Positions 187 through 27,502 of a stretch of DNA of 30,123 bases are shown piece by piece (the first letter of the stretch is position 1; every line of letters begins with the position of its first letter). The translations under genes were made by a program, and so were the position numbers. The DNA is taken from contig JAXDQU010000049.1 in NCBI GenBank assembly GCA_034667685.1, positions 1 through 30,123 on the forward strand, written 5' to 3'. The DNA comes from Thermoplasmata archaeon (GTDB lineage Archaea > Thermoplasmatota > SW-10-69-26 > JACQPN01 > JAJPHT01). The notes beneath the pieces were generated by a model. It did no database searches, was not told the origin of the DNA, and was given only the letters and a program-made list of their open reading frames with translations.

Positions 187-3100
187 ATGCTCGCCCTCGC
201 GGCGGTGACGCTCCTCGGCCTCCCCCTCGTTGCCTCGCCCGCGGCCGCCCACGACCTCCCGCTCCCGGCGAGCGTGGGCGCGATCTTCGTCGACGCGCAG
301 GGGCGCGCCAGCGGCCAGAACCTCGCCGCCACGATCGACGAGGCGCAGGGCGCGCTGACCGGCTTCGCGAGCACGGCGGGCGGCGGCCTCTTCGACGCGG
401 TGCGCGTCGACGGGTTCGCGCAGGCGGAGAAGATCCAGGGCGTCGGCTCCTCCAGCGTCACGCTGGCCGGCTCGAACGCCATCCTCACGCTCACCGACAC
501 CGCGAGCACGATCCTCGCGATCCACGCGCTCGACGCGACGGAGATCCGCTACCAGCCCGCCTCCGGCACGCACGCGCTGCTCGTCACCGAGCGCCGCGGC
601 ATCGTCGAGCTGCGCCGCGACGACGGCGGCCTCGCCGGCACGCTGGTCGCGGTGGGCGACGACGGCGCGGCCTCGCGCGGCGAGATCCTCTCGATCGTCG
701 AGGGGACCATCGTCGTCTCCGCGAAGGCCGGCACCGAGCTGGTCTTCCTCGGCGGCGCGCAGGACACGCTCCACGACGCGCTCGTCGCGGGCCTCGCGGA
801 AGGCGCGCTCGCGGCGGCCTACGTCACGGGCTTCCAGGACGGCGCGACACGCGACGCGAGCCAAGACTTCGGCACCGCCGCCCGCGCGCTCACCTCCGGC
901 GCGGAAGGCGTCGTGCGGACGCGCGTCGCCGCGCCCGAGCCGGGCCAGACGCTCCTCGCCTACGACCTCGCCTACGAGACGCTCCCCGCCGCGGACGCGG
1001 GCCAGGTCGCGCTCTACCTCGACGGCGGCCTCGCGCTGCGCGTGGACAGCCCGAGCGAATTGCTATCTTACGCCGAGCGCCACGTCGCCGCCTACTTCGC
1101 GCAGGCGCGCGACGGGCGCGTGCAGGTCCTCGCCTCGGTCCCCGTCGACGCCAGCGGCCACGCGATCGAGCTGCGCGCCTCCGCCAGCGCCTCGACGCAG
1201 CAGCAGGCCCAGGCCGAGGATTCCGGCGATGCGTCGGGCCGCGCCTACGGCGGCTTCACGCTCGCGGACAACGGCAAGCTCACCGGGCGCTTCAGCACCA
1301 GCATCGTGCGCAAGGACGCGCTCCAGCTCTTCGGTTACACGGAGCTTTCTCCGCGCGCCGAGGCGTTCCGCAACGTGACGATCTCCGGCGGCGCGTCCGC
1401 CAGCGCGACCACCGACGGCCAGCGCTTCGAGCTCACCGGCGACGACGCGACGCTCCAGCTCGTGGACGACGCGCTCGCCACCCTCTCGCTCCAGGCGCGC
1501 AAGCCCGTCGAGGCCGTCTTCGAGCCCGGCGCCGACGCGCACGCGCGCCCGATCGACGCCCGCGTCGTGGCGCTCGAAGGCAGCGCCGGCCGCGTGGGCG
1601 ACCTCATCCTCGCCAGCGGCCAGGGCGCGCTCGACGTCGACGCGCAGGGCCGCATCGTGGCCCACCTCGGCGCCGGCAGCACGGTGATCTTCCGCGGCGC
1701 CACGCACACCTTCCCCTCCGACGACGCGCTCGCGCAGGCCATCGCGGCCGGGCGCGTGGGCGCGCAGGCCATCGCGGGCGTGCAGGACGCGGCGCTGGCG
1801 ACGAGCGCGATGAGCTATCACGCGCTCACCATGATCGGCGCCGACGCGCGCCACCAGGGCGAGGTCGACGTGAGCTACGCCGCGGGCACCGCGCAGGCGC
1901 AGGCGTTCGCCCTCGACGCGCGCGGCGCGAGCCTCGCGGCCAAGTCCTCGGCTGATATCACCGTCACGGTCGACGGCCTCCAGGCGGCGCAGACGCAGAC
2001 GCTCGCCGAGGCCCTCGCCGCCGGCGCGAGCGCCCGCTACTACGCCGAGACGGCAGCCGACGGCGCGCTCCGCGTCATCGTGAACACGGCCTCCGATGCG
2101 GGCCACGCCTCGAAGGTCGTCGTGTCCAGCCGCGTCGCCGCCGCCGCGCGCGCCGCATCCAACCTCGACGCCTTCGGCACGTTCCGCGTCTTCGACGACG
2201 GGAGCGCCGTGGGCAGCTTCGTCTCGCTCAAGGTCGACGCGGCCGCGGGCGCCATCAGCGGCTACACGCTCCTCGCCTCGGGCCAGCCCGTCTTCGCGAG
2301 CGTCGCGGCGGGCGGCTCCGCCTTCGCGGGACAGGGCCTCGACGGCGCCTCCGCGCTGCTCCTGGAGAGCCGCGAGGCGCGCTTCGAGATCACCGACACC
2401 ACCACCGGCTTCGCGAAGCTCACCGCCAAGTCCCCGACGCACGCGGCCTTCCGCCTCGCCAACGGCCTGCACGCCGAGAGCCGCGGCGCGGGCGTCGTCG
2501 AGGTCGTGACCGAGGGCGGCCGCGACGTGGGAAGCCTTGTCTTCAGCCAGGGCGCGAGCGCCGCGCAGACCGGCCAGGGCGAGGTCGCCGCGCAGCTCGC
2601 GCAGGGCGCGCAGGTCCTCTTCCGCGCGCACGTCGGCGTCGAGTCCGAGCTCTCCAGCGCGCAGCGCGCCATGATGGGGCAGGCCATCGCCGCCGGGCGC
2701 GTCGCGGGCGCCGTGCTCGTGCAGACCCAGCGCGGCCTCTCCACCGCCGCGCGCAACGCGCTCGAAAGCACCTCGAACGAGGCGCAGGACGTCGCCGTGG
2801 GCGCCGCGGAGCAGGGCTCCGGCGTCTTCACCAGCGCCGTCACCGCGAGCTACCGCGACGACGTGCAGATCGCCACCGCCGCCACGCAGGGGCGCGTCGA
2901 CGTCACCGTCGCCTCCAGCGCGAGCGCGGGCAAGACCATCCTCGTCTCCCTCGACCGGGCCACCATCCACGGCCTCGCGACGGGTGACGCGGACATCCTC
3001 TTCGACGGACAGCCCATCAAGGAGGCCTCCTCCTTCGCGGACGTCCTCGATCCCACCGACGACCACGGCCAGGCCGAGTACTTCGTCCTCGCGGGCGAGG

Positions 3101-3270
3101 CCGGCACGCAGGTGCTCGTGAGCATCCCGCACTTCAGCGTGCACACGGTCACGCTCAAGGAGCGCGCGAGCGAGCCCAGCGGCGCGTACATGTACGCCAC
3201 CTTCGCGCTCGCCGTCGTGGTCGCCGCCGAGAGCGTGATCCTCTACCGCCGCCGGCAGAGGAAGAGCTGA
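187..3270 (+). CDS. Large secreted, C-terminally membrane-anchored surface protein with three internal repeats (S-layer-like)
   Basis: ORF 136-3270; the ATG at 187 gives a signal peptide (MLALAAVTLLGLPLVASPAAA/H). The C-terminus has a TM helix plus basic tail (YATFALAVVVAAESVILYRRRQRKS) and a VSIPHFS motif. Ala/Gly/Ser/Thr rich with three homologous blocks. Confidence 0.75.
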   Translation: MLALAAVTLLGLPLVASPAAAHDLPLPASVGAIFVDAQGRASGQNLAATIDEAQGALTGFASTAGGGLFDAVRVDGFAQAEKIQGVGSSSVTLAGSNAILTLTDTASTILAIHALDATEIRYQPASGTHALLVTERRGIVELRRDDGGLAGTLVAVGDDGAASRGEILSIVEGTIVVSAKAGTELVFLGGAQDTLHDALVAGLAEGALAAAYVTGFQDGATRDASQDFGTAARALTSGAEGVVRTRVAAPEPGQTLLAYDLAYETLPAADAGQVALYLDGGLALRVDSPSELLSYAERHVAAYFAQARDGRVQVLASVPVDASGHAIELRASASASTQQQAQAEDSGDASGRAYGGFTLADNGKLTGRFSTSIVRKDALQLFGYTELSPRAEAFRNVTISGGASASATTDGQRFELTGDDATLQLVDDALATLSLQARKPVEAVFEPGADAHARPIDARVVALEGSAGRVGDLILASGQGALDVDAQGRIVAHLGAGSTVIFRGATHTFPSDDALAQAIAAGRVGAQAIAGVQDAALATSAMSYHALTMIGADARHQGEVDVSYAAGTAQAQAFALDARGASLAAKSSADITVTVDGLQAAQTQTLAEALAAGASARYYAETAADGALRVIVNTASDAGHASKVVVSSRVAAAARAASNLDAFGTFRVFDDGSAVGSFVSLKVDAAAGAISGYTLLASGQPVFASVAAGGSAFAGQGLDGASALLLESREARFEITDTTTGFAKLTAKSPTHAAFRLANGLHAESRGAGVVEVVTEGGRDVGSLVFSQGASAAQTGQGEVAAQLAQGAQVLFRAHVGVESELSSAQRAMMGQAIAAGRVAGAVLVQTQRGLSTAARNALESTSNEAQDVAVGAAEQGSGVFTSAVTASYRDDVQIATAATQGRVDVTVASSASAGKTILVSLDRATIHGLATGDADILFDGQPIKEASSFADVLDPTDDHGQAEYFVLAGEAGTQVLVSIPHFSVHTVTLKERASEPSGAYMYATFALAVVVAAESVILYRRRQRKS

Positions 3271-3649: not shown

Positions 3650-3651
3650 GA

Positions 3652-3736
3652 GGCTCCGGGCTCTGGACTCAGGGCTGTAGGCTCTGGAGACATTCATGGC
3701 AGAGTCCTGAGCCCTGAGTCCAGAGCCTTGAGCCCC
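3652..3736. repeat. Empty heptamer palindromic element (inverted GAG[C/T]CCN arrays, ~12-nt loop)
   Basis: Left arm GGCTCCGGGCTCTGGACTCAGGGCTGTAGGCTCTGG (3652-3687) is the imperfect reverse complement of right arm CAGAGTCCTGAGCCCTGAGTCCAGAGCCTTGAGCC (3700-3734). Confidence 0.9.
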
Positions 3737-3753: not shown

Positions 3754-4047
3754 TCAGCAGCCCGACAGCATCGAGAAGCGGCCGTGGCACGTGTTGAACG
3801 CCAGGATGCCGATGCGCAGGACGACGTCGAGCACGATCAGGAGCGAGAGGCCGATGATCCCGCCGATGGCGATGTGGTCCTCCCTGCTCCAGAAGCCGAA
3901 CACCATCGTGGCGATGACGAGCAGGTAAGGCCACGCGCCGAGGCTGACGCCCGCCGCGACCGCGTAGGCCACCACGCCGATGAACGCCACGAGGCACGCC
4001 AGGGCGACGATGCTCTTCCAGGTGCCGTGGATCGTCAGCTGCGCCAT
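3754..4047 (-). CDS. Small integral membrane protein (about 3 TM helices), function unknown
   Basis: 97-aa hydrophobic ORF. AT-rich TTCAAATA on the minus strand ~25 bp upstream (about 4070-4077). Confidence 0.65.
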   Translation of the reverse strand: MAQLTIHGTWKSIVALACLVAFIGVVAYAVAAGVSLGAWPYLLVIATMVFGFWSREDHIAIGGIIGLSLLIVLDVVLRIGILAFNTCHGRFSMLSGC

Positions 4048-4101
4048 CGCGCCGCGATTCGGGCGGAGCTATTTGAAGGCTACCGCCCCATGCCCGGGTT
4101 T

Positions 4102-4141
4102 GGGCTCAGGACTCGGGACTCAGGGCTCGGGACTCTCCGGG
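4102..4141. repeat. Left heptamer arm flanking the four-helix-bundle gene
   Basis: GGGCTCA GGACTCG GGACTCA GGGCTCG GGACTCT CCGGG, the reverse-complement orientation of GAG[C/T]CCN. Confidence 0.9.
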
Positions 4142-4193
4142 CGTCGGTGCGCGCGGGGCAAAGGAGATGATGTGTGGAGAGGAGAGGCCGCCG

Positions 4194-4556
4194 ATGGGTC
4201 AGGCTCCTCACGAGAAGCTGCGCGCATACCAGAAGTCGCTGGAGGCCGCAGCGCTCCTGCGCGCGATCGCCCGCGCGATCCCCGCAGACCAGGCAGACCT
4301 CCGCGACGAGCTTCGCCGCGCGTCGACCTCTGTTGTCCTGAACCTGGCCGAGGGAGGCGACGAGTTCAGCCCCGCGGAGAAGGCGCGGTTCTACCGGATG
4401 TCGCGGCGGTCAGCGGGCGAATGCCTCGCCGTCCTCGATCTGCTCACCGTCGAAGGAATGGATCTGGACGCGACGCTTGCCAAGGATGCGTTGACCCACG
4501 TGATGGCGCTGACGACGACCCTGGTGCTCCGCGCGCTCTCGATGCGGGAGCCCTGA
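4194..4556 (+). CDS. Four helix bundle protein (23S rRNA intervening-sequence protein / Avd-like family)
   Basis: Family signature HEKLRAYQKS…LRDELRRASTSVVLNLAEG…EKARFYRMSRRSAGEC. GGAGAGG RBS at 4181-4187 favours the ATG at 4194 over 4167. Confidence 0.9.
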   Translation: MGQAPHEKLRAYQKSLEAAALLRAIARAIPADQADLRDELRRASTSVVLNLAEGGDEFSPAEKARFYRMSRRSAGECLAVLDLLTVEGMDLDATLAKDALTHVMALTTTLVLRALSMREP

Positions 4557-4581
4557 GCCCCGAGTCCAGAGCCCGTAGCCC
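4544..4581. repeat. Right heptamer arm flanking the four-helix-bundle gene; contains its stop codon
   Basis: GCG GGAGCCC TGAGCCC CGAGTCC AGAGCCC GTAGCCC. TGA at 4554-4556 ends the ORF. Confidence 0.9.
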
Positions 4582-4587
4582 CCCGGT

Positions 4588-5091
4588 TCACAGGTGCATG
4601 ACCGGTTCCTGCGTCGCGAACGCCTTACCCATGCGCTCGGCGGCGATGTTCTCGATGCCGCGGTACTCCAGGTCCACGATCTGGCCGTTGGCGCCCAGGA
4701 AGCGCACCTCGTAGCCGAAGCGCTGCGCGACGGCCTTGAAGAGGACGAACTTGGAGGTGTTCGCGTTGATGCCCTGCCACTTCGCCTCGATCACGTGCGG
4801 CGGGCCCGAGGCGATCAGGTGGTTGTAGAGGGGGCGGTTCCGGCCGCGCACGCCCACGAGGCGGTCGAGGTTGTAGACCTCGTTGACCTGCGGGTTGAGG
4901 TAGCGGTTGACCTCGTCCTTGGACAGGCCGCTCTTCTCCGCGATGGCGCGGAGCGTCTGCTTCTCGCCGGATTGGGCCATCTCGTTGAGCGCGTCGAGGA
5001 GGCGCAGCACGTCCCGCTCCAGCTTCTCCAGGGCGGGGTTGGCCCGGGGCTGCTGGCCTTCGGGCGCGGACGGCGCGTCGCTCATCATCAC
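4588..5091 (-). CDS. HTH-containing hypothetical protein
   Basis: TLRAIAEKSGLSKDEVNRYLN is a helix-turn-helix pattern. TTTATC box on the minus strand about 5110-5115. Start could be 5091, 5088 or 5085. Confidence 0.65.
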   Translation of the reverse strand: MMMSDAPSAPEGQQPRANPALEKLERDVLRLLDALNEMAQSGEKQTLRAIAEKSGLSKDEVNRYLNPQVNEVYNLDRLVGVRGRNRPLYNHLIASGPPHVIEAKWQGINANTSKFVLFKAVAQRFGYEVRFLGANGQIVDLEYRGIENIAAERMGKAFATQEPVMHL

Positions 5092-5160
5092 GGCTTACGC
5101 CGGGATTCTGATAAAGGTTGACACAGGGCCGGGGGTTGGTGGGGTGCCGCCCGCTGTCCC

Positions 5161-5284
5161 TTCAGGGCTCAAGGCTCTGGACTCAGGGCTCGGGGCTCCC
5201 GCTCGCTGTGCACCCGGAGAGCCCCGAGTCCTGAGCCCTGAGTCCAGAGCCCTGAAGCCATGAGCCCTGAAGGTCAGAGCCCCG
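5161..5284. repeat. Empty heptamer palindromic element with both inner-boundary motifs of the gene-containing copy
   Basis: 5161-5198 versus 5219-5256 is a 38-bp imperfect inverted repeat (6 mismatches by hand). Further degenerate units run to about 5284. Confidence 0.9.
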
Positions 5285-5296
5285 ATCGCCGAACCC

Positions 5297-5731
5297 TTAG
5301 TTCCGCGGCGGGCAACAGGCGCCGGCGGGGATCGGCTTCCCATCGACGCCGGTGGCCGGATGCCCCAGCAGCTCGCAGACCCAGCGCTCCATGGCCGGGG
5401 GGATGGCGTGCTCCATGCTGCACGCGGGGTCCTCCGCCTGGTCGGCCGGCACGCCCACGACGTCCACGAGGAAGCGCTCCAGGAGCCGGTGCTTGCGGAT
5501 CACGCCGCGGCCGATGGCGAGGCCGCTGGGCGAGAGCGACGCGCCGCGGTAGGGCTCGTAGTGGACGAACCCCGCGGCCGCGAGCTTCTGCACCATCTCG
5601 GTCGCGCTGGGCGGGCTGACCTTCCACTCGTGGGCAATGTCGCGCGTGCGTGCCAGCTCGCCCTGCTCGGTGAGAACGTAGATCGTCTCGAGGTACATCT
5701 CGACGTTCTCGGAGAGGGCGCGCTTCGCCAC
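5297..5731 (-). CDS. DtxR/MntR family metal-dependent transcriptional regulator
   Basis: SENVEMYLETIY…ARTRDIA…VSPPSATEMVQKL…YEPYRG…RKHRLLERFL…ACSMEH. GTG start at 5731 lies within the longer ORF 5297-6346. Confidence 0.92.
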   Translation of the reverse strand: MAKRALSENVEMYLETIYVLTEQGELARTRDIAHEWKVSPPSATEMVQKLAAAGFVHYEPYRGASLSPSGLAIGRGVIRKHRLLERFLVDVVGVPADQAEDPACSMEHAIPPAMERWVCELLGHPATGVDGKPIPAGACCPPRN

Positions 5732-14900: not shown

Positions 14901-15045
14901 CCGAATCTCCGAATCTCGGAATCTCCGCCTCGTGACCTGGGAGAAAAACCCGAGAACCCGAAGACCCGAGAACCCGATCCCGGATTCGCGTCGACGGGTC
15001 CTCGGGTTTCCACCAGGGTCACGAAGCGGAGATTCCGAGATTCCG
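14901..15045. repeat. Nested palindrome built from two octamer arrays
   Basis: CCGAATCT CCGAATCT CGGAATCT (14901-14924) and CCCGAGAA CCCGAAGA CCCGAGAA (14949-14972). Outer inverted repeat 14911-14940 / 15013-15043; inner inverted repeat 14946-14960 / 14995-15009. Confidence 0.85.
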
Positions 15046-17191: not shown

Positions 17192-18388
17192 TCAGCCCAC
17201 CTTCTTCGCCGCCAGGTCGGCCAGGTGCTCGCCGAAGGGGAGCGAGCAGGTCAGCCCCGGCGAGACGGCATTGAGCACGTGCGCCGCGCGCGGCGTCTCG
17301 CGCACCACGATGTCCTCGACGAGGTTGCCCTTGCGGTCCACCATCTGCGCGCGGTTGCCGGCGTAGCTCGGGCGCAGGTCGTCGGGCCGAAGCTCAGGCA
17401 CAAGGAGGCGCGCCTCCTTCCAGATGGCCTTCAACGAGAGGCTCTTCGCCACCTCGTCGCGGATCAGGCGCCGGAACTGCGGCTTGACCATCATCTTCCA
17501 GAAGCCGCCCCAGCCCAGCGTGAGCCCGAGCCCGCCGCCGCGCATCGAGGAGAACGTGTAAGCCTCGCGGCCGAACGCGAGCATGGCGCCGGGCCCCACG
17601 ATCACGCGCCCGTCAGCGCGGCGCGAGAGGTGCACGCCCAGGAAGGGGAACGTGAGGTCGGGCGCCGCGTAGATGTGCGAGCGCACGAGGTCGCGCCGCT
17701 GCGGCGCAAGCTCGGCGTAGTAGCCGCGGAACGGGATCACGCGCATGTCCGGCGCCAGCTCGCGCGCCAGGCGATCGGCCCACAGCCCCGAGGCGTTGAC
17801 GAGCGCCTTCGCCGTGAGGCTGCCCTTGCTCGTGCGCAGCGTGACGCCCGCCGCGTCCTCGGCGATGCCGAGCACCTTCGTGTCGTAGAGGATGCTCGCG
17901 CCGGCGCGCAGCGCGTCGTCCGAGAGCGCGTGGACGTACGCCCGCGCGTCGAACGAGGCGGCATCGCGCGCGTGCAACGCCTCGATGCCCACGGCGTGCG
18001 GCTCCTGCTCGCGGAGGCCCTTCTCGTCAAGCATGCGCACGTCCACGCCGTTGCCCTTGCCGCGCTTGTGCAGCTCCGCGAGCACCGCGCGCTCGGGCTC
18101 GGTCCGCGCGACCACGAGGATGCCGCCGGGGTGCGTCGCGATGCCGCGCTCCTCGCAGTACGCGCGCAGGCGCTTGTTGCCCTCGACGCAGTACGTCGCC
18201 TTCGCGCTGCCGGGTTTCACGTTGTAGCCCGCATGGATCACGCCGCTGTTGCGCCCGCTCTGGTGCAGCGCGGGGCCGCTCTCCTTCTCCACGACGAGGA
18301 CCTTCAGGCCGCGGCTCGCGGCGTGATAGGCGGCGCTCGTGCCGATGGCACCGGCGCCGACGATCAACAGATCGGCGTCGAGGCTCAC
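17192..18388 (-). CDS. lhgO: L-2-hydroxyglutarate oxidase-like FAD-dependent oxidoreductase
   Basis: IVGAGAIG, EKE…HQSGRNSGVIHAG, IPFRGYY, FPFLGVH, HVLNAVSPGLT. Confidence 0.85.
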   Translation of the reverse strand: MSLDADLLIVGAGAIGTSAAYHAASRGLKVLVVEKESGPALHQSGRNSGVIHAGYNVKPGSAKATYCVEGNKRLRAYCEERGIATHPGGILVVARTEPERAVLAELHKRGKGNGVDVRMLDEKGLREQEPHAVGIEALHARDAASFDARAYVHALSDDALRAGASILYDTKVLGIAEDAAGVTLRTSKGSLTAKALVNASGLWADRLARELAPDMRVIPFRGYYAELAPQRRDLVRSHIYAAPDLTFPFLGVHLSRRADGRVIVGPGAMLAFGREAYTFSSMRGGGLGLTLGWGGFWKMMVKPQFRRLIRDEVAKSLSLKAIWKEARLLVPELRPDDLRPSYAGNRAQMVDRKGNLVEDIVVRETPRAAHVLNAVSPGLTCSLPFGEHLADLAAKKVG

Positions 18389-18810
18389 GCGATTCCCTCG
18401 GCGGCCTTGGCGAGCGACTTGGCGATGCGGCGCACCTCCATGGGAGCGCGCAACGCGTGCGCGTGGATGCGGCTTGGATCGAGCTCGGCGTAGCGATGGA
18501 GGAGGACGTTGCGGAAGCGCCGCAGGTCGCGCAGCGTGCGGGCTTGCTCCTCGTCGAGAAAGCCCGCGTGGAGGAGCTTCGCGTCGATCCCCTCCTCATC
18601 CGAAGGGACGCCGAGGCGGCGCATCGCGCAGACGGTCGCCGCGAGGTCCGAAAGCGCCTCGATGGAGACGTGGAGCGAGCGCTCCACCGCGAGCTGTTTC
18701 ATCCGATCTGCAGCGTACGATGCGAAGACATTGGGTGTGAACTGCTCGACATCCGCGGTGGCGCGGTCGATCACGTCGAGGTACGCGAGGACGCGCTCAC
18801 GACCAGGCAC
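18385..18810 (-). CDS. HepT-like (DUF86) HEPN ribonuclease toxin
   Basis: AVERSLHVSIEA..D and FRNVLLHRY (Rx4HxY). Lies directly downstream of an MNT gene. Confidence 0.88.
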   Translation of the reverse strand: MPGRERVLAYLDVIDRATADVEQFTPNVFASYAADRMKQLAVERSLHVSIEALSDLAATVCAMRRLGVPSDEEGIDAKLLHAGFLDEEQARTLRDLRRFRNVLLHRYAELDPSRIHAHALRAPMEVRRIAKSLAKAAEGIA

Positions 18811-19201
18811 GCTCGACCGCCTCCAGGTACGTCTCGTAGTGCGGCTTGAAGTCCGTCCACGCGCGGACGGTCTGCAGGGCGATCTCGTAGAGCGCATCCT
18901 CGTCCTTGAGGAGCAGCGGGACGGCGTCGCGGAGCACCTGGCGGCGCACGTACAGCGGCAGCGCCTGGAACACGGAGACGTCCAATCCCTCGTGCCGCTT
19001 GCCGCTGGCGTGGCCCAGATAGCGCAGGTGGGCGTCCTGCGGATCGCGGCGCGCGTCGGGGCGCAGCACGACGCACACGTCCACGTCGCGCCCTTCGCCT
19101 TCGCGCGCCGCGCTGCCGAAGAGGAGCACGGCGAGCACGTCGGGGTCCGCACGTGCCTCGGCCAGGAGGGCGTCGAGCGCCCGCGCGTCCGCGTCCTTCA
19201 C
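18797..19201 (-). CDS. Minimal nucleotidyltransferase (MntA-like antitoxin)
   Basis: VLAVLLFGSAAR…DVDVCV, LDVSVFQALPLYVR..VL. Confidence 0.88.
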   Translation of the reverse strand: MKDADARALDALLAEARADPDVLAVLLFGSAAREGEGRDVDVCVVLRPDARRDPQDAHLRYLGHASGKRHEGLDVSVFQALPLYVRRQVLRDAVPLLLKDEDALYEIALQTVRAWTDFKPHYETYLEAVERAWS

Positions 19202-26426: not shown

Positions 26427-27152
26427 ATGTCCGGGGACTGGTCGATCGTCCTCCGCCCGACGTCGCGCCGGATCCTCGGCGCGCTCCTCGGGGGCAGCAG
26501 GTCGCTCACCGACCTCGCCCAGACGACCGGGCTCTCCAAGCCTTCGCTTCAGCCCCACTTGAAGGAGCTCGCGGCCTTGGGCGTCATCGAGCGCGATGCG
26601 CGCGCCACCCAGCAAGGCCGGGAGGTGCGATATCACCTCAGGAATGCCTCGCTCCACCTGGAGCTCGACCTCGTGACGTCGACGGCCATCGGCTGGGCCA
26701 CCGCAGGCTTCGTGGACTGGCGTTTCCCGCTCACCGGGCAGATCCCGCAGGACGACGCGCGCGACGAGGTCACGCTCTTCTTGAGGCACGTCGGCCCGCG
26801 CATCCCCTCTGCCCTCTGGAACGACTCGTTCGTCATCCTGTACGGCTCGGCGGCGCGCGGCGAGGCGACGTGGAAGAGCGACCTTGACCTGCGGATGCTC
26901 TTCCCCAAGCCCGTCACGTCCAAGGTGGAGCAGGACATCGATGACGTGGTCGCTTGGGTACAGGAAACCCATCCGCACGCGCTGTCGGTCACCTTCGGCA
27001 CCGTCCAGGCGTTCATCGGATCGAGGAAGACCCTCGACCAGGAGATTGCCGCCGAGGGCATGATCGTCTGGGGCCCGCGAGCCCTCGAAGGCGAGGAGGT
27101 GAATCGGGCGCTATGGGAGCGGATGCGGAGATACAAGGCCATCTCGATCTGA
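26427..27152 (+). CDS. Winged-HTH (ArsR-like) fused to a minimal nucleotidyltransferase
   Basis: N-part RRILGAL…SLTDLAQTTGLSKPSLQPHLKELAALGVI…RY; C-part ILYGSAARGEATWKSDLDL (GSx10DxD). Confidence 0.85.
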   Translation: MSGDWSIVLRPTSRRILGALLGGSRSLTDLAQTTGLSKPSLQPHLKELAALGVIERDARATQQGREVRYHLRNASLHLELDLVTSTAIGWATAGFVDWRFPLTGQIPQDDARDEVTLFLRHVGPRIPSALWNDSFVILYGSAARGEATWKSDLDLRMLFPKPVTSKVEQDIDDVVAWVQETHPHALSVTFGTVQAFIGSRKTLDQEIAAEGMIVWGPRALEGEEVNRALWERMRRYKAISI

Positions 27153-27502
27153 GCCGAGAATGGCTGGAAGCAGCCGAGACGCTTCTCGTCAAAGGCCTGT
27201 TGGCGCCCGCCTATCACGATGCGGTCCATGCGCTGGAGCTGGCGCTGAAGGCCGCGCTCACCTCCCTTGAAGTCAAGGTCCCCAAGGAGCACAACATCGC
27301 AGGCGCGTTCGGACTGCACTTCCGCGACCGCTTCGACGCCGCCGACCTTCGCCGGATCAACCGCATCCTCCGATCCTACAACGGGCCCCGCTACCCGGAC
27401 TGGGAGGCGCCCGCTCACACCGAGATTGAGGGGGACGTCGCGTTCATCGGGCAGCTCGTGCGCCAAGAGATCCCGCGTCTCGTCAAGGAGGGCCGGCCAT
27501 GA
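27113..27502 (+). CDS. HEPN domain protein
   Basis: EWLEAAE.L…AYHDAVHALELALKAAL…PKEHN…PRYPD is the classical HEPN pattern. It overlaps the MNT gene end. Confidence 0.82.
   Translation: MGADAEIQGHLDLSREWLEAAETLLVKGLLAPAYHDAVHALELALKAALTSLEVKVPKEHNIAGAFGLHFRDRFDAADLRRINRILRSYNGPRYPDWEAPAHTEIEGDVAFIGQLVRQEIPRLVKEGRP

Follow-up and report, generated by a model that had tools for sequence, protein, structure and literature searches.

Positions 4102-4582 of the window analyzed here, the whole of contig JAXDQU010000049.1 (C49; 30,123 nucleotides, nt) of a Thermoplasmata archaeon, hold a small gene for a four-helix-bundle protein of the 23S_rRNA_IVP (IVP) family, enclosed by two inverted arrays of short tandem repeats. 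Arms and gene together form a discrete unit that was gained or lost as a whole, and the same genome contains a species-specific burst of gene-less copies that keep the junctions between the arms and the interior. We favor, with a probability of roughly 0.55, the interpretation that this unit is a hairpin-armed, selfish foldback cassette that resembles the intervening sequences (IVSs) of ribosomal RNA (rRNA) and operates at the DNA level, that the gene-less hairpins are its derivatives, and that the encoded protein acts on its own hairpin. The source genome (G000) is a 3.48-Mb assembly, 99% complete, in 124 contigs with 71% GC; it was compared with 20 relatives, among them four congeners that are 86-94% complete.

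The left arm (4102-4136, + strand) consists of five GGRCTCN heptamers in phase (GGGCTCA GGACTCG GGACTCA GGGCTCG GGACTCT), followed by CCGGG (4137-4141). The right arm (4548-4582, +) consists of five inverted GAGYCCN heptamers (GAGCCCT GAGCCCC GAGTCCA GAGCCCG TAGCCCC), the last of which is degenerate, and is preceded by GCGG. The inner junctions read CTCT/CCGGG on the left (4133-4141, +) and GCGG/GAGCCC on the right (4544-4553, +; GCGGGAGCCC). When 4085-4600 is folded as RNA (minimum free energy -266.7 kcal/mol, z -4.0), the arms pair with each other, and the helix extends inward through a 5' segment, GCGTCGGTGCGCGCGGGG (4141-4158, +), which is complementary in sequence to a 3' segment within the end of the open reading frame (ORF; 4527-4545, +). 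The cassette is thereby built of 35-nt arms and an inner stem of ~18 bp, with 412 nt between the arms and a total length of ~480 nt. Its sole ORF is the IVP gene (4194-4556, +; 120 aa), whose TGA stop falls within the first unit of the right arm. A first-pass annotation of the window had described a gene enclosed by inverted heptamer arrays, and this description stands, the gene being intact; two points are corrected, in that the pairing extends inward past the heptamers and that the family has additional arrays in the window, at 24-51 and 3651-3736. With an ungapped score of +1/-2, the inverted repeat flanking the C49 gene scores 21; among 600 random genes of the genome, a single one reaches 16, the threshold that we adopted for arms (≥16); thus, the C49 arms exceed chance.

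The cassette is placed between two protein-coding genes, outside rRNA, and its gene is antisense to both neighbors. On one side it borders the stop codon of a 167-aa gene and on the other a conserved, TATA-like CTATTTGAAG, which precedes a membrane-protein gene. Two AT-rich boxes, CTATTTGAAG (4069-4078) and GATAAAGGTT (5109-5118), both given in the letters of the + strand, are found ~20-30 nt upstream of two minus-strand genes and are conserved in all three congeners. These boxes are probably archaeal TATA boxes, with the cassette and the hairpins lying just outside them.

The C49 ORF matches PF05635 (23S_rRNA_IVP; E = 1.2e-14, 54.9 bits vs. a cut-off of 33.8) and the NCBIfam model TIGR02436, “four helix bundle protein” (E = 5.4e-13, 49.1 bits vs. 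a cut-off of 24). By comparison with paralogues (MGQAPHEKLRAYQK...), the start codon is likely the ATG at 4194, not the one at 4167. The protein retains 16/16 invariant residues of the subfamily alignment A2, and the profile of this alignment matches, at the level of sequence, PDB entries 2gsc_A (five chains, E = 1.8e-17) and 2rld_A (five chains, E = 4.4e-3). The Coxiella protein of 2gsc is described as a homopentameric four-helix-bundle toroid in the accessible text of PMC4990558. The assignment to the IVP family made from the bare translation is therefore confirmed by two profiles above their cut-offs and by the likeness to a solved pentameric four-helix bundle.

Gene-less members of the same arm family are present in the window. 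The element at 5165-5253 (no strand assigned), read on the minus strand as ...GGACTCGGGGCTCT-CCGGGTGCACAGCGAGCGG-GAGCCCCGAGCCC..., consists of five units, the 19-nt core in the context CTCT-CCGGGTGCACAGCGAGCGG-GAGCCC, and five more units, with degenerate units continuing to ~5282. This arrangement defines what we call class B. The element had been noticed earlier (as 5161-5256) as an empty sibling that keeps both inner boundaries in the same order, which proved correct. A second gene-less hairpin, more degenerate and with a 16-nt center, is found at 3651-3736 (no strand assigned), and the array scan placed a single GAGYCCN arm at the start of the contig (24-51, +), in a family that often ends contigs.

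Genome-wide, a scan allowing one mismatch per GGRCTCN unit yielded 172 arrays that merge into 98 elements, 95 of which fall outside called genes (gene positions were taken from our own, crude codon-model caller). Because the heptamer is quasi-symmetric, a reversed-sequence control is invalid; we relied instead on a gene-flank control and on the count of left-right vs. right-left orientation, which gave the left-right order of a hairpin in 69 elements and the reverse order in 4. About 15 single arms mark contig ends; the assembly thus breaks at this family, whose true number is higher. Hairpins with two called neighbors occupy divergent gaps in 27/64 cases (background 17%) and convergent gaps in only 6/64, and are thus not simply terminators. 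In 35 copies, the arms abut at the center (..GGCTCC G GAGCC..), and ~20 carry an asymmetric core of 18-19 nt in either orientation, flanked by both inner junctions of the cassette. Eighteen core-bearing (class B) copies fit one 88-nt consensus, GGGGCTCTGGGCTCAGGACTCnGGACTCGGGGCTCT-CCGGnTGCAAGGCAAGCGG-GAGCCCCGAGTCCnGAGTCCnGAGCCCnGAGCCCC, with unrelated flanks and no visible duplication, and the CTCT/CCGG and GCGG/GAGCCC junctions of the filled copy recur in these 18 aligned copies.

The distinction between filled and empty copies, drawn at first from one pair, therefore holds and generalizes: the C49 cassette is the sole gene-bearing member among ~100 dispersed GGRCTCN elements of 70-90 bp with defined ends. 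Among the genomes compared, the family occurs in this one alone, as a BLAST search with 5160-5258 gave 79 matches in G000 and none in the 20 relatives, the four of the same genus included. Complementarity at R/Y positions was 0.83 for an element’s own arm and 0.82 for another’s, a comparison that shows only that one master unit order is common to the copies. We also considered whether the class B core arose by deletion from the 5' inner region of the filled copy; the colinear order of CCGGG, TGC, GGCAA, and GCGG is suggestive, but the gaps were freely chosen, and this derivation is unproven.

The unit is missing from orthologous sites in two congeners. In G003 (contig C29) and G004 (contig C117), the flanking genes (3754-4047 and 4588-5091) are adjacent, with DNA identity of 72-87% in the flanks, and nothing matches 4080-4587 (+), the inserted unit in full, which comprises both arms, the gene, and a little outer flank. 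At the orthologous sites, both congeners also lack the gene-less hairpins at 3651-3736 and 5161-5282. The C49 unit and the neighboring gene-less copies are, hence, insertions or deletions relative to these congeners, the kind of indel for which the first-pass annotation had proposed to align the locus. The sequence CCCGG, found on both sides of the C49 unit, was tried as a target-site duplication and rejected, since the empty site lacks it in both G003 and G004.

A hairpin of another family, on contig C12, is likewise absent in G003. Elsewhere on the same contig, an intergenic site (C12:15951-16025) holds a GGRCTCN hairpin in G000, and the same site in G003 (C20, ~53657-53813) holds a hairpin of another family, with GAATCTCC-type units. 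Different hairpin families at one site suggest insertion hot spots or replacement.

Four DNA sequencing runs were inspected for the locus. One contig spans 3300-5700 without differences and may represent the source sample. In run X3, joints 4128→4555 and 4135→4548 were considered as a gene-free allele and rejected, their sides being only 27-34 nt and attributable to other gene-less hairpins; one X3 contig has 211 different letters in place of 4969-5326. Run X4 contains a shallow rhizosphere contig (record 28, on 4192-4510) that is IVP-like at 85-95% identity and skips 154 nt (4258→4413). This contig may derive from another organism with a decayed copy.

The design is not limited to one arm family or one gene. 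A palindrome census of the genome (score ≥20, loop ≤160) found 315 hairpin loci, 70 of them GGRCTCN and the rest in at least 12 further families, nearly all of which are built from tandem units of 6-10 nt. At several sites (for example, C110 6733, C9 27177, C15 6354, C16 2161, C32 8265, and C116 7279), the hairpin of one family is nested at the center of another. A hairpin of these other families also lies in the window (14901-15045), where a composite of 8-mer arrays (CCGAATCT, AACCCGAG, and GAGATTCC) separates two sugar-cluster genes.

The genome has four PF05635 genes, three of which are enclosed by inverted arms of GGRCTCN (C49), GGGAAGAN (C124), and GCCTCA (C115) units; the C115 arm runs off its contig. 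In the C124 and C115 cassettes, 0-8 nt separate the left arm from the stop codon of the gene upstream, which has the same orientation. A search for distant inverted arms (spacing of 160-3000 nt, no cargo preset) returned repeat-armed, one-gene units at five places, with a spacing of 416-511 nt: the IVP cassettes of C49 and C124, and three units on C21, C55, and C11 whose cargo belongs to PF13366 (PDDEXK_3)/TIGR04256 (GxxExxY). These three are all the PDDEXK_3 genes of the genome. The GxxExxY signature can be read in two of the three translations, the third having S for G, and an acidic residue and E-x-K are present in all three, as a PD-(D/E)XK site needs. Another candidate, C74 779-2507 (66-nt arms, two genes), was discarded as a cassette, its translations reading as a glycosyltransferase-like gene and a small ORF between two separate hairpins.

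The motif GC-GATTCCCGGAG(G/A)AG lies ~12 nt inside the left arm at C124:76018, C21:31044, and C55:19336, which have different arms and cargo, and a variant is found in the 5' inner region of C115. Similar motifs precede ordinary genes (C11 73360, C65 1588, C76 11552, C122 51450, and C22 9604), and the motif may be an expression signal. Three cassettes have the string GCGATTCCCGGAGGAG ~12 nt inside their left arm, and it precedes ordinary genes too; it was not used as evidence.

Beyond the source genome, arms scoring ≥16 flank 15/28 IVP loci and 22/30 PDDEXK_3 loci of Thermoplasmatota relatives (20/25 among the PDDEXK_3 loci with full flanks). The same is true of 49/80 loci of this IVP subfamily in Myxococcota, Planctomycetota, Chlamydiota, Legionella, Gemmatimonadota, and others. 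Against these counts stands the 1/600 of random G000 genes. Deliberately mismatched pairs of loci gave arms in 13/160 cases, a null raised by the (GCCCGT)n arms that many loci have in common. The length of the repeat unit goes with the cargo family across genomes: it is 6 in 28/29 periodic IVP arms of the multi-phylum set and in 9/13 among the relatives, and 8-10 in 21/22 PDDEXK_3 arms. One design, a small IVP or GxxExxY gene between tandem-repeat inverted arms ~0.4-0.6 kb apart, with gene-less copies nearby or elsewhere, therefore accommodates two small cargo families, unrelated to each other, in two domains of life. The picture of a single filled/empty pair was real but partial, missing that its arms represent one of at least 12 tandem-repeat hairpin families, that there is a second cargo, and that the design spreads across phyla. 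As to the arms themselves, those at loci L038-L116 (Planctomycetota, Myxococcota, Chlamydiota, and others) are often identical hexamer arrays, (GCCCGT)n or (GCCCTT)n, and those in Thermoplasmatota genomes differ in every cassette.

In the reading that we favor, the cassette would spread, or be maintained, as DNA and as a selfish element. The gene-less hairpins would be non-autonomous or decayed derivatives that multiplied, and the encoded protein, a putative nucleic-acid-binding bundle here and a predicted PD-(D/E)XK nuclease in the sister cassettes, would act on the hairpin or cruciform of its own element. Such a scheme requires no reverse transcriptase, no Y1/RAYT (REP-associated tyrosine) transposase, where REP denotes a repetitive extragenic palindrome, and no RNase III.

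Several points weigh against this reading. No mobility event was observed, and gain or loss is deduced from genomes that are only 72-87% identical in the flanks; the change may have been deletion of the cargo or its insertion into an existing hairpin. Target duplications, the other trace that the first-pass annotation had looked to at orthologous loci, did not appear: neither a target-site duplication nor a target motif was seen at the compared sites (C49, C12, and the 18 aligned copies). Each arm family has one filled copy, and at least eight hairpin families of G000 have no gene-bearing copy in the genome, so a relation of one protein to one family is not established. The fourth IVP gene of the genome (C40) is not enclosed and lies directly beside a complete hairpin. 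To our knowledge, IVP proteins have no enzymatic activity. Finally, the genome has an RNase III gene of its own, and the mismatch comparison that speaks to processing of RNA, described below, has little power.

Action at the RNA level is the first alternative, and we consider it unlikely. Here, the cassette would be an IVS-like module whose stem, in the transcript, either serves as a substrate for RNase III or a different double-strand RNase or stabilizes the RNA ends, and a small mRNA would be freed from the host transcript. The pairing of arms and inner stem in the fold of 4085-4600 is what such a module would show, its size and layout agree with those given for the Coxiella IVS in the accessible text of PMC4990558, and the position of the C124 and C115 left arms right after the stop of a co-oriented gene suits excision from a longer transcript. 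An RNase III domain gene is indeed found in G000 (C78:55583-55942), although horizontal transfer or contamination during binning may account for it. Among the other genomes of the family, 0/8 yielded RNase III, although 7/8 carry IVP cassettes and 7/8 carry PDDEXK_3, and the archaeal control genomes were also negative.

In the sense strand of 49 cassettes, G·U-type mismatches number 69 and A·C-type mismatches 64, with no excess of the former. This comparison is weak: with 161 of the 294 mismatches of the transversion type, the arms record differences between repeat units, not point mutation. An RNA-level module is also at odds with the antisense orientation of the C49 gene to both neighbors, with the 35 gene-less copies that are palindromes of abutting arms, and with the preference of hairpins for divergent promoter gaps. 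The 23S rRNA gene of the genome (C89:71156-74085) spans 2930 nt for 2987 model positions and is thus uninterrupted. As RNase III was not found in the eight relatives, G·U-type mismatches show no excess, and the C49 gene is antisense to its neighbors, RNase III processing, which is the accepted route for the IVSs of rRNA, is unlikely to be the common denominator of such cassettes.

A second alternative, which we regard as improbable, makes the hairpin the target and not the vehicle. Palindromes would spread alone or be host elements, and IVP and GxxExxY genes would insert or home into their centers, possibly through a nuclease cut followed by repair copying. The nested hairpins are what insertion into centers would leave behind, and the site at C12 15951, occupied by different families in G000 and G003, points in the same direction. 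A predicted nuclease is at hand in the GxxExxY genes, with the signature in 2/3 and the acidic residue and E-x-K in 3/3, and filled and class B copies have both junctions in common. rRNA IVSs, too, occupy helix tips, as far as PMC4990558 relates. The correspondence of arm unit length with cargo family across phyla, on the other hand, fits arms that travel with their gene, and arms and gene are missing together in the congeners. One filled copy against ~100 empty ones per family would be unexpected under efficient homing, and IVP is not a nuclease.

That the arrays arose by local replication slippage or by chance, leaving a gene between two independent arrays with no character of a unit, deserves almost no credence: short tandem repeats do arise by slippage and heptamer cores are common in a 71% GC genome, but neither process accounts for the left-right order in 69/98 elements against 4 reversed, for one 88-nt consensus with defined ends in 18 copies, for arms of comparable strength at only 1/600 control genes, or for the recurrence of the design at 49/80 loci in other phyla.

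The cassette has partial counterparts among known elements, the rRNA IVSs in particular. In Coxiella, the 23S rRNA IVS is 428-444 nt long; a 28-bp stem closes its ends around an S23p ORF, RNase III excises it, and it is considered a selfish element whose origin is unknown. Where rRNA IVSs and their S23p/IVP protein come from, how they move, and what they do have been open questions since ~1990, and the insertions sit at helix tips (all from the accessible text of PMC4990558). IVP ORFs also occur in rRNA insertions of bacteria of the candidate phyla radiation (PMC11270868, accessible text). The IVSs of Coxiella burnetii and Leptospira share with the C49 cassette the protein family in the loop, an inverted-repeat stem that encloses the ORF, and a unit of ~430-600 nt, as well as a sporadic distribution that resembles gain and loss and the existence of ORF-less versions (in the available parts of PMC4990558 and PMC11270868). 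An ORF-enclosing stem of terminal repeats in a unit of ~0.4-0.8 kb is thus common to both, and the location at an rRNA helix tip is not. Unlike the rRNA IVSs, the G000 cassette is archaeal and lies between protein genes, and none of the genome’s IVP genes is in rRNA; its arms are tandem 6-9-mers, with ~100 gene-less copies per family and GxxExxY as a second cargo, and RNase III was not found in most of its host family.

REP sequences, their REPIN arrangements, and RAYT genes offer another comparison, as high-copy intergenic palindromes with defined ends, lineage-specific bursts, and one associated gene proposed to mobilize them. Membership of the cassette in a REP/RAYT-like system, which the first-pass annotation had entertained, finds no support in G000, where Y1_Tnp (PF01797) has no match at 99% completeness, with matches in 6/14 control genomes. 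Moreover, the arms are 35-60 nt of tandem repeats vs. REPs of 20-40 bp, and the palindrome encloses the gene, whose product is a four-helix bundle or a PD-(D/E)XK protein. Neither a transposase nor a reverse transcriptase family is represented among the 33 called genes of the window, as had been stated at the outset, and RVT_1 (PF00078) has no match in G000, the window included.

Similarly, miniature inverted-repeat transposable elements (MITEs) with an autonomous parent resemble the family in that short gene-less copies have the same termini and inner junctions as a single longer copy that bears the gene, and in that insertions are polymorphic between relatives. They differ in that G000 shows no recognizable transposase and no target-site duplication at its elements, which are nearly all inverted repeat. 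The accessory protein Avd of diversity-generating retroelements belongs to a homologous four-helix-bundle family and associates with nucleic acids (PMC10053308, accessible text). The G000 gene, in contrast, stands alone between its arms, with no template/variable repeat and in a genome in which no reverse transcriptase was found.

Foldback (FB) elements of Drosophila and other eukaryotes have long arms of short tandem repeats around a loop that is mostly tiny, with few copies having a coding loop. The tandem-repeat inverted arms and the few copies with genes in the loop recall our cassette, whereas FB elements are eukaryotic and much larger and carry unrelated loop genes; no homology is implied. 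Our literature search, which did not extend to supplements, found no paper in which an IVP or GxxExxY gene is described within inverted tandem-repeat arms at sites other than rRNA.

These comparisons invite a broader proposal, which we offer tentatively and hold to be less probable than the reading of the C49 cassette itself. IVP and GxxExxY proteins could be element-encoded factors of undescribed prokaryotic foldback elements, in bacteria and archaea, whose movement, as DNA hairpins or cruciforms, would need no conventional transposase. ORF-bearing rRNA IVSs and many intergenic tandem-repeat palindromes would then be instances or decay products of such elements, one of which would have seeded the ~100-copy burst in this archaeon. 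The locus provides a gene-in-a-stem unit outside rRNA, in an archaeon, with a countable gene-less family, clean presence/absence relative to congeners, and a predicted nuclease as second cargo. For IVP and GxxExxY, both widespread orphan families, this suggests a concrete candidate job, that of acting on their own hairpin arms, and the locus could explain a large part of the ~315 long intergenic palindromes at which the G000 assembly breaks.

Three further features of the window are unrelated to the cassette. A gene for a ~1030-aa protein (187-3270, +) has an N-terminal signal-like segment and a C-terminal hydrophobic-basic tail, with no Pfam match at 1e-5. On the minus strand (18385-19201), a Polbeta-type nucleotidyltransferase gene has immediately after it a gene for a HepT-like RNase (PF01934), and the two look like a HepT/MNT toxin-antitoxin pair within a cluster of dTDP-rhamnose and glycosyltransferase genes. 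A second nucleotidyltransferase/HEPN pair, made up of a gene with helix-turn-helix and nucleotidyltransferase parts and a small HEPN-domain gene after it, is found in the same glycosylation cluster (26427-27502, +).

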